Assembly: GCA_048940645.1 (NCBI GenBank) | Contig: JBHLOI010000058.1 | Span: forward strand, 1-21,325 | Length of the DNA: 21,325 nt | Direction: 5' to 3' | Source: Promethearchaeota archaeon | Lineage (GTDB): Archaea > Asgardarchaeota > Lokiarchaeia > Sigyniarchaeales > SOKP01 | Part shown: positions 16,698 to 21,325 of the stretch, piece after piece | How the letters are laid out: every line of letters begins with the position of its first letter | Numbering within the stretch: the stretch's first letter is position 1 | The notes under the pieces: generated by a model | Database searches by the model: none | What the model saw: only the letters and a program-made list of their open reading frames with translations | What the model was told of the DNA's origin: nothing | Translations under genes and position numbers: made by a program

Positions 16698-16807
16698 GGA
16701 ATCATCTCTAATTATATAAACTTATTTAACTAATAATAAAGATTTTTTATAATTTTTGATTGTATAATTAATCAATAATTCATCAAAATATTTTATAAGT
16801 GATTAGG

Positions 16808-16978
16808 TTGGGTCAAGTCTTATGCGAAAATTGTGGTGATGAAGCTCCTGAGGGAATTCTTTATGAATGTATTGATTGTTTTAGCCCACTATGCGATAAC
16901 TGCGCAAATGTTTGTAAAAACTGTGGGGCTTATATCTGCGATGGATGTTATCATTATCATAAGAAAAAATGTTATTGA
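16808..16978 (+). CDS. 56-aa Cys-rich multi-zinc-finger mini-protein (missed by the ORF track)
   Basis: TTG at 16808 (alternative GTG at 16799): MGQVLCENCGDEAPEGILYECIDCFSPLCDNCANVCKNCGAYICDGCYHYHKKKCY*. Five CxxC plus HxxxC; the stop abuts the next ATG. Confidence 0.85.
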   Translation: MGQVLCENCGDEAPEGILYECIDCFSPLCDNCANVCKNCGAYICDGCYHYHKKKCY

Positions 16979-17389
16979 ATGAAGGGCTCTTATATCTTAG
17001 TAATACTGCTTGAAAGAGAAAAAATTATTAAAATCGGCTCACTTAGAAATCTCCTCTTTTCTAAGGGATTCTATCTTTATATAGGTTCTGCAATGGGAAA
17101 TACTGGGTCCTCTACATTGCTGAATCGAGTAAAAAGGCATTTTTTAAATAAAAGCGAAAAAAAGCTTCACTGGCATATAGATTATTTATTGGCAGATAAA
17201 AATTCTATTATAGTAAAATTATATCTCATTCCTTCAATCAAACCTTTAGAATGTATAATAGCTCGAGAATTCCTAGAGCAATGTGATAATTTCATTAAAG
17301 ATTTTGGATCATCAGACTGTAATTGCATTAGTCATTTATTCTATTTCCAAAATTTTAAAAATATAAATCCAAATCAGAATTGTTCTTAA
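16979..17389 (+). CDS. DUF123 / Uri-superfamily GIY-YIG endonuclease
   Basis: KGSYIL, GFYLYIGSA, RVKRH, HWHIDYL, FGSSDCNCISHLF. Confidence 0.88.
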   Translation: MKGSYILVILLEREKIIKIGSLRNLLFSKGFYLYIGSAMGNTGSSTLLNRVKRHFLNKSEKKLHWHIDYLLADKNSIIVKLYLIPSIKPLECIIAREFLEQCDNFIKDFGSSDCNCISHLFYFQNFKNINPNQNCS

Positions 17390-17412: not shown

Positions 17413-18483
17413 TTATCTAAGCTGAGCACCACAATGTGGGCAATATATTAGATTTTCTTCTCTATCTATCTTTTCACCACAATATCTGCAATAACTTGGG
17501 TTTTGATCTGTTTCTTCATTCGGTTTTCTTGAAACATATTTTTCTAATTTTTTGAGGCTTTCTTCTAACTCTATAATACTATTTAACATATCTGGATTAC
17601 TTTCCTCACTTTGCAATTTTACATATTCAGAAGATAATAAGTGGGATTCCATCAATTTGTCGGTTATTTTCCTCAATCTTTCGATCGCATTATTTAAAAT
17701 TCTCTTTCCGTAATCTAATCTTTGACGCTCTAATTGTATGAGCTTTTTTTCAATTTCTATTTTATGGATTCTTTTCTCTAATTTTCTAGTGTATGATAAT
17801 AATTCTTCTATAATTTCTCTATTTCTATTAAAATTTTTTCTATGGTCAATACTATTATTATATGATAAAATATTTCCCCATTCATCTAATTTTGCAATCC
17901 AATTATTAATTTTAAATCTAGTATCTTCGGTAATTCTAACGATTTCGTTTGGAGGTGTTGTTTTTTCAACAACTAATCTCATTAGTCCTGATTTATTATC
18001 AATTTTTGGTGATTTTCTGAATATTTTTACAATCTGATTAATTGGATTACTGGGATCGCTGATTTGAAAACCCTTCGCTAAAATGTCAATCACATCTCCT
18101 TTGACTACAGGTTTATCAATTAATATTAATTTAAGTACTTTGGAAAGGGTTATTAGATCTATATAAGTAAAAGTTGGAGTAAACTCAATTTCTTCAGCAG
18201 TAATTACAACTGTCTTTCTTATTTTAACAATTTCCCCAACTTTCACACCTGCATTCAATCGGAGAAGATCGTCTAATCTTATTATATTTGTCCCTTTATC
18301 TCCGATACTAGGCATAACTATTCCAGCTGTCCTCTTTTTACCTGTAATCTCAATAATACTTCCTGTTGATAAAAATAATCTGTCTACAACATATTGATCT
18401 ATATAACATAATGAGTGTCCAGCAGAATTATTTTGTAAAGCCTCAACCCTTAACCCACCACCCTCAAATCTCTGCCTTATCAA
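17413..18483 (-). CDS. Chimeric protein: Cdc48/p97/VAT N-domain (no AAA ATPase) + PAN-like coiled coil + C-terminal Zn ribbon
   Basis: aa 11-192 match the CDC48_N/CDC48_2 pattern (GSIIEITGKKRT, IIRLDDLLRLNAGVKVGEIVKI, PVVKGDVI, VVEKTTP, VRITEDT). No Walker A/B motifs. Coiled coil at aa 227-272; CRYC...CPHC at aa 332-351. Confidence 0.8.
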   Translation of the reverse strand: MIRQRFEGGGLRVEALQNNSAGHSLCYIDQYVVDRLFLSTGSIIEITGKKRTAGIVMPSIGDKGTNIIRLDDLLRLNAGVKVGEIVKIRKTVVITAEEIEFTPTFTYIDLITLSKVLKLILIDKPVVKGDVIDILAKGFQISDPSNPINQIVKIFRKSPKIDNKSGLMRLVVEKTTPPNEIVRITEDTRFKINNWIAKLDEWGNILSYNNSIDHRKNFNRNREIIEELLSYTRKLEKRIHKIEIEKKLIQLERQRLDYGKRILNNAIERLRKITDKLMESHLLSSEYVKLQSEESNPDMLNSIIELEESLKKLEKYVSRKPNEETDQNPSYCRYCGEKIDREENLIYCPHCGAQLR

Positions 18484-18680
18484 TATAAATCAAACTTTTT
18501 GATTTCAATGTATGATGCACTGTATATTATCTGTATACTAAGTATTTAAAGTTTTGCTAATTAAGGTATGAATATATTGTTAGTAACCTTAAATTTATAT
18601 ATGATGATATACAATCAATATACAGAAGCAGATAAAAAAATTAAATATTATAAAATTGTAACATTGGGAGATTGATATAA
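18484..18680. promoter_or_regulatory. Bidirectional archaeal promoter region with mirrored direct-repeat boxes
   Basis: Minus strand: TTTAAATA (18550-18543) then TATACA-GATAA-TATACAG (18537-18520). Plus strand: TTTATATA (18594-18601) then TATACA-ATCAA-TATACAG (18608-18625). Also an inverted repeat AAATCAAA-CTT-TTTGATTT (18487-18505) and a GGGAG RBS-like site (18666-18670). Confidence 0.55.
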
Positions 18681-21325
18681 ATATCAATAGAAGTATTTGA
18701 GCCATTAAGTTCTCAACTTGGTATACCTGGGACTTCTTATAGGATTCAACTGGGATTAATTAATGGAAAATGGGCATCAAGACTCTTGAAAGGACAAAAT
18801 GTCATCGATTCATACATTTATAAGGATGAAGATATAGCAGAGGGGGGATTTCCTAATCAAAATATCATTGTAGGCTGGGTATTGCGTACTGTAGCCATTC
18901 CAAACATAAACCCACATCAAATAATGAAAACAACTCAGGCTTTAATGAAACAAGCAATCGAAAAGAAAGAACAAAAAAAGGTAATGGTTCCCGTAAAAGA
19001 AACTAAAAAGGTTGAATTAGAAAAAGTACCTGAAAGTTCTAGAGAATTACCATCTGAAATTAAAGTTGAACACATAGGAAATAATAATCGTGAAGATAAT
19101 TTATTAATAAAATTATTAAAAGAAAAAGATGAAGAGTTTGAACAATTAAAACTTGAATATGAACTATTAAATCAAGAATTAAGATCAGGTAAACCATCAT
19201 TTGAAATTCAATCAGAAGGTAATCTGGGTAACAAAGAACGGATATTGAATCTCCTTAAATCAAAATATCTAACCAGCAATGAAATTGCTGAAAGACTTAG
19301 TTTAAGTAAACAAGATACTCGCACTTATCTTCAAAGACTTAAAGCAGAAGACAAAATCAAGGTTATTGATAAAAAGGGGCGATTTTTAGTTTATGCCTTA
19401 AAGAAACCTATTAGTTCAGCAAAAGAACACTATGCGCCCGAATCCTTAGAATATGATTTAAGTTATTTACTCAATCTGATAGAGATGAAAATGACTCCTA
19501 AGGATGGTGTGAAATTCACTCCAATTGATCTCATGCATATCAAAAAAATCGAAAAACGAATTGCAGATAAAAAATGGGAAAACAAGCAAGAAATAAAAGC
19601 CCTAAGAGAATTAATCGACTTTGAAAAGACCTATAAAGAAGAAATAGATGAAAAGTTGGCTGAACTGGAAGCAAGAGTTAATTATATTGCATCTGGAGTA
19701 GAATTAAAACAAAAAGTAATAGAACAAAAAGAAGAAGAGGGATTCAGGGCAGCCAAAAATCAAGTATCCACTGAAGCGATTTATAAGGTTATAGTAATCG
19801 GTGACCCTGCTGTGGGAAAAACAGAACTTCTTAAAAAGTTTGCGACTAGAGCATTTGAGGAAAGGTATCTTCCTACTGTTGGTGTTAATATTTTGAAAGA
19901 ATCTATTAATTTAGATGATTTGAATGCCACAGTAAATTTAATGTTCTGGGATGTGCCAGGGCAACCTCAATTTTATATGCTCTATCGACCGTATTTTAAT
20001 GGAGCAGATGGTATGATCTTAACTTTCGATATAACTCGTTCAAGTACGTTTAGCAATATTAACAATTGGTATTCGACTGCTATAAAATACGGATTAAGCG
20101 GAATTCCTAGAATCTTAGTTGGAATTAAAAAGGAGTTAAACTCAGAAGAGCAACGCAAAATAATTTTACCCATGGCTGAGCATTTAAGTGAAAAACTCAA
20201 TGCGCCATATTTTGAAGTGTCTCTTGATACTGGAGAAAATGTTGAGCTCATTTTTCAAACTATTGCAGAATTAGTTCATAGATATAAAAATGGCGAAAAT
20301 TGGAACGTTCATGGCATTGAACAAAAAATAGCAGCAGTTCCAGAAACCCCTTCTATAAAGTCACCTGAACCTAAACCCGCTTCCGTGATATCTGAAAAAA
20401 TTCCAATCGCCTTAAAAGAAAGTCCAATTTTTCCATCATCATTCCAATCATCTCACATATCAAGTAGTCAATCCTTCGTCAATTATATGCCACAAACTAT
20501 TTCATCAAAGAAATTAGATGAATTACGATGTCAATATTGTGGTTATATTATTTTAAAACCTTATCCTAAAGATCAACTCTGCCCTAAATGTAGGAAATTT
20601 CTTCCTGAGTTATATAAATATGTAAATAATTCAGAAGTAGAAGGAAAAAAGGAGCCCAAACAGTTTAAGACTAAAACTTCAACTCTTAGTTCAAAATTTC
20701 AAGGAAAAATTAAAGTTAAAACAAAAGCAGAATCATTTTCAGTTGAAGATGAGATTATTTATTTAAAAAATGAAGAGGAATACGTTAAATTTTTAGGTAT
20801 CACCTCTGTAGAAAGAACTCCGTTATTTAATAATAATCATCGATATAAATATCTTTTAGAATTGACAAATAACTTAGATTACATTGCAACAAGTATTCTG
20901 GGTGGAGAATTAGATAAAATGCTTCTTATTACCGATAAAAACATCGAAGAAAAGTGTCATTTCTATGTTAAGGATGAAATCATATATATTGTATATGGAG
21001 TCTTTCCTGATAAAAAAGGTAAATGGATGCTTGAGCAAATGGCAAACTATTATTCTGAATTAGTTCGTGGTAAGGATGTAAATAATTTATCTAAACTTGA
21101 AAAAAGTAATATTAACCATAAATTCATAGGGCTTCTTAAGTTCATGTTAAATGAGTATCTAGGTTTACAAGAAGTATTTACAGATCAAGAGATTCCTTAC
21201 CTTGAAGATTGGATTAGAGTTGATTATGTAGGATTATCTTCAATGTCAATAGGGGTAATATCACTCCTTTTAGATGAAGAAGGAAATCTAAATGTGGAGG
21301 TGACTGGAGAATTTGATAATCACGC
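18681..21325 (+). CDS. Giant multidomain protein (>880 aa, runs off the window): unknown N-domain - coil - winged HTH - coil - Rab-like small GTPase - Pro/Ser linker - Zn ribbon - longin-like domain(s)
   Basis: Not in the ORF track because there is no stop in the window. Manual translation is open from 18681 (after TAA 18678-18680) to the end. wHTH about 19230-19400 (KERILNLLKSKYLTSNEIAERLSLSKQDTRTYLQRLKAEDKIKV...GRFLVY); GTPase about 19782-20280 (YKVIVIGDPAVGKT, YLPTVGV, WDVPGQ); CQYC...CPKC at 20529-20591; longin-like about 20781-21160. Confidence 0.88.
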   Translation, partial: MSIEVFEPLSSQLGIPGTSYRIQLGLINGKWASRLLKGQNVIDSYIYKDEDIAEGGFPNQNIIVGWVLRTVAIPNINPHQIMKTTQALMKQAIEKKEQKKVMVPVKETKKVELEKVPESSRELPSEIKVEHIGNNNREDNLLIKLLKEKDEEFEQLKLEYELLNQELRSGKPSFEIQSEGNLGNKERILNLLKSKYLTSNEIAERLSLSKQDTRTYLQRLKAEDKIKVIDKKGRFLVYALKKPISSAKEHYAPESLEYDLSYLLNLIEMKMTPKDGVKFTPIDLMHIKKIEKRIADKKWENKQEIKALRELIDFEKTYKEEIDEKLAELEARVNYIASGVELKQKVIEQKEEEGFRAAKNQVSTEAIYKVIVIGDPAVGKTELLKKFATRAFEERYLPTVGVNILKESINLDDLNATVNLMFWDVPGQPQFYMLYRPYFNGADGMILTFDITRSSTFSNINNWYSTAIKYGLSGIPRILVGIKKELNSEEQRKIILPMAEHLSEKLNAPYFEVSLDTGENVELIFQTIAELVHRYKNGENWNVHGIEQKIAAVPETPSIKSPEPKPASVISEKIPIALKESPIFPSSFQSSHISSSQSFVNYMPQTISSKKLDELRCQYCGYIILKPYPKDQLCPKCRKFLPELYKYVNNSEVEGKKEPKQFKTKTSTLSSKFQGKIKVKTKAESFSVEDEIIYLKNEEEYVKFLGITSVERTPLFNNNHRYKYLLELTNNLDYIATSILGGELDKMLLITDKNIEEKCHFYVKDEIIYIVYGVFPDKKGKWMLEQMANYYSELVRGKDVNNLSKLEKSNINHKFIGLLKFMLNEYLGLQEVFTDQEIPYLEDWIRVDYVGLSSMSIGVISLLLDEEGNLNVEVTGEFDNH

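Follow-up and report, generated by a model that had tools for sequence, protein, structure and literature searches.

A head-to-head gene pair with a mirrored control region in an Asgard archaeon: a candidate adaptor module built from unfoldase, small-GTPase and longin parts

The present analysis concerns two divergent genes, hereafter gene A and gene B, and the control region between them, located at one end of a 21,325-nucleotide stretch of DNA from a Promethearchaeota archaeon (NCBI GenBank assembly GCA_048940645.1, contig JBHLOI010000058.1, positions 1 to 21,325). This stretch, hereafter the window, is the entire contig C112 of a 126-contig, 3.8-Mb metagenome-assembled genome (~90% complete); its G+C content is 25-35%, and no RNA genes were detected in it by ARAGORN or Rfam. 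Contigs of this genome are numbered below with C, loci with L and proteins with P. The initial annotation, made from the letters of the window, had assigned the DNA to an Asgard archaeon, and the labels of the homologs in public sources (Promethearchaeia, Lokiarchaeota or Promethearchaeota) bear this out. The two head-to-head open reading frames (ORFs) that it had described are present; the gene B frame exists, with the correction that its 3′ end is cut by the contig end and that its start lies very probably at position 18681. The genes, their domains (aa, amino acid positions) and the blocks of the control region are as follows.

17413-18483, minus strand: gene A, 356 aa, TTG start, no AAA domain (from the ORF, Pfam and the family alignment).
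17908-18453, minus strand: Cdc48 N domain of gene A, with a double-psi barrel (aa 11-91) and a beta-clam (aa 117-192).
17668-17808, minus strand: PAN-type coiled coil of gene A (aa 226-272), from alignment to the PAN of the genome and the helix predicted by AlphaFold2 (AF2).
17419-17493, minus strand: C-terminal C4 Zn ribbon of gene A (aa 331-355), CxxC...CxxC, with weak Zn-ribbon Pfam matches.
18521-18556, no strand: block L, with the putative operator TGTATATTATCTGTATAC (18521-18538), the gene A TATA box TTTAAATA (minus strand, 18543-18550) and GTTTTG resembling a B recognition element (BRE).
18587-18626, no strand: block R, with the gene B TATA box TTAAATTTATA (18589-18599) and the putative operator GATGATATACAATCAATATACAG (18603-18625), which mirrors that of block L.
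18681-21325, plus strand: gene B, 3′ end cut by the contig end; 959 aa from TTG 18786 in four other assemblies.
18681-19061, plus strand: N-terminal domain of gene B, fold unassigned (tblastn/blastn to the paralog on contig C54, 85% aa identity).
19062-19745, plus strand: coiled-coil/winged-helix/coiled-coil core of gene B (aa 93-320), with a winged helix-turn-helix (wHTH, HTH_24) at aa 150-192, that is 19233-19361.
19785-20276, plus strand: Ras-superfamily GTPase of clade G-X (residues 334-497 in Pfam; Ras E 3.8e-36).
20526-20591, plus strand: Zn ribbon of gene B (aa 581-602), opening the Zn-ribbon/di-longin module.
20775-21325, plus strand: longin 1 (aa ~664-794, to 21167) and the start of longin 2 (aa ~811-959, cut), from AF2, Foldseek and VIA-align.

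The gene A product begins with a two-part Cdc48 N domain, matched in Pfam by CDC48_N at residues 11-91 (E 2.9e-17) and by CDC48_2 at residues 117-192 (E 1e-6). The profile of the gene A family matches the N domain of VAT as well (E 2e-13), and the domain shares 48% identity with its counterpart in the true Cdc48 of the genome (contig C22); a family-specific insert occupies about aa 136-166 of its beta-clam. Further downstream, an ungapped alignment pairs residues 226-272 with the N-terminal coiled coil of the PAN encoded in the same genome (contig C7; 49% identity over 47 aa, E 5e-9), and this segment of gene A lies within a long helix predicted by AF2 at aa 218-281. Past the coil no significant alignment between gene A and PAN was obtained, with neither an OB domain nor an AAA+ module following it. 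No AAA domain was recognized in gene A by Pfam or NCBIfam; the model TIGR01243 covers it with model positions 4-204 of 733 only, at 74 bits vs a cut-off of 803. The CxxC...CxxC ribbon closes the protein, and its four cysteines are invariant throughout the family, which comprises ~25 protein clusters of 42-79% identity, all from Lokiarchaeia, equal in length (~355 aa, with a conserved stop) and conserved end to end (alignment of 23 sequences). All four features that the initial annotation had seen in gene A, i.e., the Cdc48 N domain, the PAN-like coil, the Zn ribbon and the missing AAA domain, were recovered in these searches. The gene A product is accordingly an ATPase-less chimera of the client-facing parts of both archaeal proteasomal unfoldases; lacking D1/D2 AAA modules, it cannot unfold anything by itself. 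The AF2 model of the whole protein was mediocre (predicted local distance difference test, pLDDT, 60) and was left out of the fold searches.

An imperfect inverted repeat of 22 nucleotides (nt), TGCCTTATCAATATAAATCAAA / TTTGATTTCAATGTATGATGCA, spans the gene A start codon and 5′ leader (window 18473-18519), and the leader itself is well conserved among the loci; the repeat may form a translational hairpin.

Gene B is assembled from a larger number of modules. Its N-terminal domain is common to a family of stand-alone proteins composed of this domain and a Zn ribbon (an atlas cluster of 89 Promethearchaeota members) and also begins the proteins P0125-P0128. A wHTH had been proposed in this gene from the outset: HTH_24 does match residues 150-192 of the gene B sub-sequence above its cut-off (23.1 vs 21.9 bits), the score being marginal (21.3 bits with the window-truncated 846-aa gene B). 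A GTPase follows the core (small_GTP E 2.8e-22 besides the Ras match), then a low-complexity linker and the Zn ribbon at residues 581-602, which confirms the ribbon reported earlier. No Pfam family matched residues 500-959 at E up to 5. The ~300-aa C-terminal region was modelled by AF2 from a 23-sequence alignment with a pLDDT of 85, and the model presents the topology beta-beta-alpha-beta-beta-beta-alpha-alpha twice. The top Foldseek matches were Fuzzy/Inturned, Mon1/Ccz1 and HPS1/HPS4 (E 2e-5 to 6e-4, probability 0.96-1.00), and VIA-align placed each repeat with Bet5/Trs23, VAMP7, Sec22b, Ykt6 and sigma-adaptin (Z 8-10.5, root-mean-square deviation 2.6-3.4 Å over 114-124 residues). By the predicted model, the C-terminus of gene B is composed of two longin domains, which substantiates the longin-like domains of the initial annotation.

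The 35 codons upstream of TTG 18786 (window 18681-18785) are conserved as amino acids, the differences often being synonymous (Ser TCA/AGT, Arg AGA/CGT), and the same upstream frame is conserved in L028, L030 and L031 and on contig C54 (78022-78126). This frame opens right after a TAA, with ATA in the window, ATA-ATT in L028 and L030, GTA-ATT in L031 and ATG in the C54 paralog. The coding region of gene B very probably starts 35 codons upstream of TTG 18786, at ATA 18681, and the aligned frames suggest initiation at AUA or AUU; the starts chosen by gene callers are differing and arbitrary. Near the 5′ end of the gene, a string resembling a T-arm (GGATTTGAACC in the homologs) was considered as an RNA element and rejected, since its synonymous substitution pattern is that of a protein-coding sequence.

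The GTPase of gene B is one of more than 60 small-GTPase paralogs of the genome. It is 72-77% identical to the GTPase encoded on contig C122 and to those fused to gene A homologs; the latter share 79-81% identity with the C122 copy, and the next paralog reaches 36-44%. These proteins constitute a tight GTPase clade, named here G-X. The proteins P0017, P0020, P0022 and P0025 consist of an N-terminal G-X GTPase followed by the Cdc48 N domain, coil and Zn ribbon of gene A, and a neighbouring gene in L030 combines a G-X GTPase with the coil and Zn ribbon, without the Cdc48 N domain. Since G-X resides within gene B in the window and in L029 and on the N-terminus of gene A in other lineages, the same GTPase alternates between the A side and the B side. 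In gene B, motifs G1 (GDPAVGKT) and G3 (WDVPGQ) are intact, while G4 reads IKKE in place of NKxD (GIKKEL, followed by a 2-aa insert) and G5 reads SL in place of SA (EVSLD). Alignment with the six closest relatives in the clade, which keep GNK[IV]DL and ETSAL, upholds the degeneracy of G4/G5 noticed previously. Because these guanine-specificity motifs have been lost, the switch of gene B is probably locked, altered or re-specified; an intact G-X paralog is still present on contig C122. In the fused GTPases (P0017, P0020, P0022 and P0025) NKxD and SA are retained, and G3 has Asn or Ile in the place of its Asp (WNIAGQ / WIIAGQ). With G3 altered in the fused copies and G4/G5 in gene B, members of the clade have lost different catalytic or binding motifs. 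A complex prediction for the gene A family with the G-X GTPase family, run without controls, gave a score of 0.00 and weighs neither way.

In the control region, each putative operator is a direct repeat TATACA-N5-TATACAG with one-turn spacing, placed between the outward TATA box and the expected transcription start. The alignment of 8 loci resolved two almost invariant blocks with a variable spacer between them, identity to the window amounting to 86-95% in block L, 90-100% in block R and 43-83% in the spacer. At the most distant loci the blocks are still 86-93% identical, compared with 43-57% for the spacer and 44-51% for the third codon positions of gene A; the constraint on the control region thus far exceeds that on the proteins. 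When block R was used as a query against a metagenome collection and 185,579 species genomes, it was retrieved from 6 metagenome contigs and a single species genome, each carrying modules of the gene A and/or gene B family. With as many as 2 mismatches allowed, neither operator arm has a second site in the genome, and the 23-nt arm has none at 3 mismatches either; the 18-nt arm has 11 other matches at 3 mismatches. The mirrored promoter boxes of the initial annotation form an inverted repeat with 15 of 18 positions paired (18520-18537 / 18608-18625), which is insignificant in the window alone, as 8% of Markov shuffles reach its score; the boxes are nevertheless real because they are nearly invariant across lineages.

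The pairing of the two genes is similarly persistent. A member of the gene A family faces a member of the gene B family in the window and in L020, L028, L029, L022, L023, L030, L036 and L037, and it faces a B-side operon in L040. Comparison of synteny across relatives, on which the initial proposal was to depend, thus yielded divergent A/B pairing at 10 loci at least, persisting though the flanking genes differ, and at most loci where the B-side gene is visible it carries the wHTH core. Gene A of the window is identical letter for letter in four NCBI and two Logan assemblies; many of the contigs bearing its family are short.

Gene B belongs to a combinatorial family that is built around the coiled-coil/winged-helix core, with GTPases, Zn ribbon and di-longin gained or lost. 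The core was found in 10 long GTPase proteins, and the architectures of the family include the following.

P0128, 1074 aa: N-domain, core, GTPase, Zn ribbon and di-longin, in the order of gene B with a GTPase of another clade; from a distant lineage.
P0127, 894 aa: as P0128 without the GTPase.
P0125 and P0126, 823 and 898 aa: Zn-ribbon/di-longin module not detected; a roadblock gene downstream.
P0123 and P0124, 879 and 1148 aa: two GTPases.
P0046, 929 aa: core, Zn ribbon and di-longin.
P0044 (ortholog of the sister species), 591 aa: GTPase, core and Zn ribbon.

The unit of Zn ribbon and di-longin occurs mostly as a stand-alone protein (a family of 77 cluster representatives), most full-length members of this stand-alone family possessing the CxxC...CxxC ribbon. 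The search of the modules against the same genome returned close paralogs on contigs C54 (N-domain, 85%), C122 (GTPase, 77%, with its motifs intact) and C103 (Zn ribbon and di-longin, 89-92%). The stand-alone copy at C103 10086-11237 (L002 1161-2315, minus strand) is 92% identical to the C-terminal module of gene B, with a synonymous divergence (dS) of 0.17; it has no ATG, ATA standing where its homologs have Met (MLF/MFF...). On contig C54 (76677-81654, L027), the 208-aa paralog consisting of the N-domain and a Zn ribbon is located among three JAB/MPN-domain genes (316, 490 and 466 aa), a possible hint at ubiquitin-like systems.

At the contig end inside gene B, identity to the C103 paralog is 94%, with a 380-bp block at 100%, and this near-identical copy is probably the cause of the contig break at 21325. 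Gene B is not an assembly chimera, because the uninterrupted 959-aa gene, head-to-head with gene A and spanning all junctions, is carried by four other, independent NCBI assemblies (one of them L014). Its 2.9-kb frame stays open despite ~30% G+C, and comparison of the modules with their paralogs or ortholog gave ratios of nonsynonymous to synonymous substitution rates (dN/dS) of 0.09-0.34 (0.09 for the GTPase vs C122), below the value of ~1 that the initial annotation had named, in combination with a lack of expression, as refuting its proposal. The modules of gene B are under purifying selection.

Several observations concern the neighbours of the pair. In one lineage, a 443-aa gene encoding TIR and LRR domains adjoins the 3′ end of gene A (L022 2817-4148, L023 1888-3219, L028 1989-3320). 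In the window, which also carries beta-oxidation genes, a gene for a 59-aa protein with 11 Cys and then a DUF123 gene (E 4e-28) occupy positions 16799-17389, both tail to tail with gene A, and DUF123 stays beside the module in L020 and L029. Small ORFs at the gene A 3′ end were rejected as a part of the module, those of other loci not being homologous to the 59-aa Cys-rich gene of the window. At the fused P0020 locus, a 515-aa helical protein (MDKKDGNIL...) is encoded between the operator and the wHTH-core gene (L040 330-1877); a short 5′ remnant of such a gene lies in the intergenic region of L028, and L030 has a 50-aa ORF there. The A-side gene of the operator-bearing locus L031 (3-314) is not of the Cdc48-N type and is represented by a fragment with a 'GSFWFHC' motif. 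Elsewhere in the genome (C41 5289-10461, L025), a second AAA-less Cdc48-N protein of 565 aa, with CDC48_N as its sole Pfam match, is encoded behind two small-GTPase genes and a gene for a 416-aa protein, in what appears to be an independent Cdc48N-GTPase neighbourhood.

Considering these data, we favour the reading of the locus as a locally autoregulated adaptor pair switched by a GTPase, with a probability of roughly 0.6. That gene A and gene B make up a conserved, co-regulated functional pair is the firmest part of this reading, and we are highly confident of it: the functional link is supported by the conserved pairing, by G-X being fused to gene A homologs in other lineages, and by a mirrored promoter that is ultra-conserved. 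The other two parts, autoregulation by the wHTH of gene B and a role of gene A as an adaptor towards unfoldase systems, are tentative, and we would place each somewhat short of even odds. Mechanistically, a dimeric or tetrameric DNA-binding protein seated on both operators would repress both genes, and the most economical candidate for such a repressor would be the winged helix of gene B itself. By analogy with the longin platforms acting on Rab, Rag and Arf, the GTPase and the di-longin module could serve as a nucleotide-state switch or sensor that controls the binding of DNA or of partners. The gene A product would dimerize via its coil, partner the G-X GTPase as an adaptor and display the Cdc48-type N domain and the PAN-type coil, either to clients or to the actual unfoldases. 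The links of the module to proteostasis and to transcription are what we infer from these parts. The adaptor or scaffold connecting proteostasis, GTPase signalling and transcription that the initial annotation had put forward is, consequently, sustained as regards a linked, co-regulated divergent pair (by pairing, fusions and promoter), and its tie to Cdc48/proteasome status is conjectural.

Some observations weigh against the favoured reading. The genomic context of the module offers no tie to Cdc48, PAN or the proteasome. A wHTH in gene B is a marginal call, the PDB matches lying at E 0.01-0.05 and including some protein-binding winged helices (DDRGK1), and the operators may therefore be bound by a regulator other than the wHTH of gene B; besides, in at least one locus (L022) nothing beyond the N-terminal domain and a Zn ribbon was recognized in the B-side gene, the wHTH core being undetected. 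Gene A is rare, being present in 3 of the 154 species genomes of the order, all of one genus, and it evolves fast, at a dN/dS of 0.55-0.70 among close relatives. In the sister species, gene A (L020 5833, ENA ZHAO22-1 scaffold_85) has lost the TTG start to TTA. The L020 frame itself remains open, and the gene caller placed its start 55 codons further in.

The window species and the sister species share flanks of ~90% DNA identity, and between them the homology of gene B is confined to codons 88-309, this block alone being 87.5% identical in DNA to L020, with the sequence on both sides replaced. Such replacement, together with the presence of a close paralog of each module in the genome and the permutation of the same modules among the family members, is what would be expected if the locus were nothing but a hotspot of lineage-specific recombination, in which domains are pasted together and the adjacency of genes A and B is inherited synteny devoid of joint function. 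The shuffling, which the initial annotation had mentioned as a mundane alternative, is real; it leaves unexplained, however, the fusion of the G-X GTPase to gene A in several lineages and the frozen operator, conservation of the shared control region greatly exceeding that of synonymous sites in the genes it serves. Moreover, the pairing outlives both the rearrangements and the changes of flanking genes, and gene B modules are under purifying selection, so that shuffling as the whole explanation seems improbable to us.

The fast evolution of gene A is concentrated in its N domain (dN/dS 0.78-0.82), at a divergence at which the flanking genes show 0.20 (DUF123) and 0.09 (acyl-CoA dehydrogenase). 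This focus, the patchy distribution over one genus, the rapid swapping of modules and the proximity of a TIR-LRR gene in one lineage and of a DUF123 gene in another would suit a conflict or surveillance system, in which gene A is a bait for factors attacking the real unfoldases and the GTPase-longin-wHTH protein senses modification of the bait and switches on a response. Against such a role, no model of the PADLOC library (2023 version) matched gene A, gene B, DUF123 or TIR-LRR at E ≤ 0.01 save one weak wHTH match to SoFic (E 0.007), neither a mobile-element nor a defence-island setting is apparent in the window, no effector accompanies the pair consistently, and dN/dS remains below 1; we consider this explanation unlikely, on a par with mere shuffling. 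Slightly less probable again is its more specific form, an Asgard guard/decoy system in which an unfoldase-mimic bait is read by the GTPase/di-longin/winged-helix protein with transcription from the mirrored operator as the output; if this were true, integrated-decoy immune sensing and longin-regulated GTPase signalling would both have a forerunner in archaea. For the integrated-decoy sensor speculated upon in the initial annotation, the features that fit are indirect only.

Finally, an artefact or decay, with gene B mis-joined from paralogous pieces or both genes being pseudogenes, might be suspected from the contig end at the C103-like segment, the lack of a canonical start codon at the conserved N-terminus of gene B and the TTA of the sister species' gene A, and is effectively excluded by the intact gene in the same context in four other assemblies, the long open frame in AT-rich DNA, the same overall architecture in the distant lineage of P0128 and the low dN/dS of the modules.

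The favoured reading of a GTPase-switched adaptor pair gains interest from the position of Asgard archaea as the closest prokaryotic relatives of eukaryotes, whose expanded GTPases and longin/roadblock proteins are viewed as seeds of the regulation of membrane traffic. The roles of Asgard small GTPases in the cell are largely unknown, and the module provides a concrete testable circuit in which one particular GTPase clade and a platform of two longins, similar in structure to the tri-longin Rab GEFs, come together with a candidate DNA-binding domain, an operator of defined sequence and a partner derived from the two proteasomal unfoldases. If the proposed links hold, an Asgard GTPase/longin switch would be coupled to the control of genes and to adaptors of protein quality control, and not to membranes. 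The locus is also a case of rapid module exchange between neighbouring genes around a frozen cis-regulatory region.

Among known systems, gene A shares the two-part N domain (residues 11-192) with Cdc48/VAT/p97 and differs from them in having a coil and a Zn ribbon in the place of the D1/D2 ATPase modules, as well as in the beta-clam insert. With the PAN/Rpt ATPases it shares the N-terminal coil, which is not followed by the OB ring and AAA. A precedent for an ATPase-less adaptor is Ufd1, a eukaryotic Cdc48 cofactor that uses a Cdc48-N-like UT3 domain as its binding module; Ufd1 has no PAN-type coil, Zn ribbon or link to a GTPase, and its likeness to gene A is by description only. In archaeal autorepressors (MDR1, Phr and the TrmB type), the operators are situated just downstream of the TATA box, and the bound protein blocks the recruitment of RNA polymerase. 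The putative operators of the module likewise lie between TATA box and expected start; unlike those systems, it has two mirror-image promoters ~70 bp apart and a candidate regulator equipped with GTPase and longin modules.

The best multi-domain structural match to the C-terminus of gene B is provided by the tri-longin Rab guanine nucleotide exchange factors (GEFs) Mon1-Ccz1, Fuzzy-Inturned/CPLANE and HPS1-HPS4/BLOC-3, in which tandem longins act on small GTPases. These have three longins per subunit vs two in gene B, show no sequence similarity to it and give overall TM-scores of 0.2-0.26, and in gene B the module shares its chain with a GTPase and a Zn ribbon. Asgard proteins joining a GTPase and a longin or roadblock domain in one chain have already been described (Commun Biol 2024, PMC10933270); their GTPases are Rag/Arf-like and each is joined to one longin or roadblock domain, and that paper makes no mention of a winged helix, a Zn-ribbon/di-longin module, a Cdc48-N partner or a mirrored operator. 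The literature searched, which included few subscription journals, contained no description of the Cdc48N-PAN-coil-ribbon family, the wHTH/GTPase/Zn-ribbon/di-longin family, their pairing or the operator. Each domain of the module comes from a known family, and it is the architectures and the system-level arrangement that are new.

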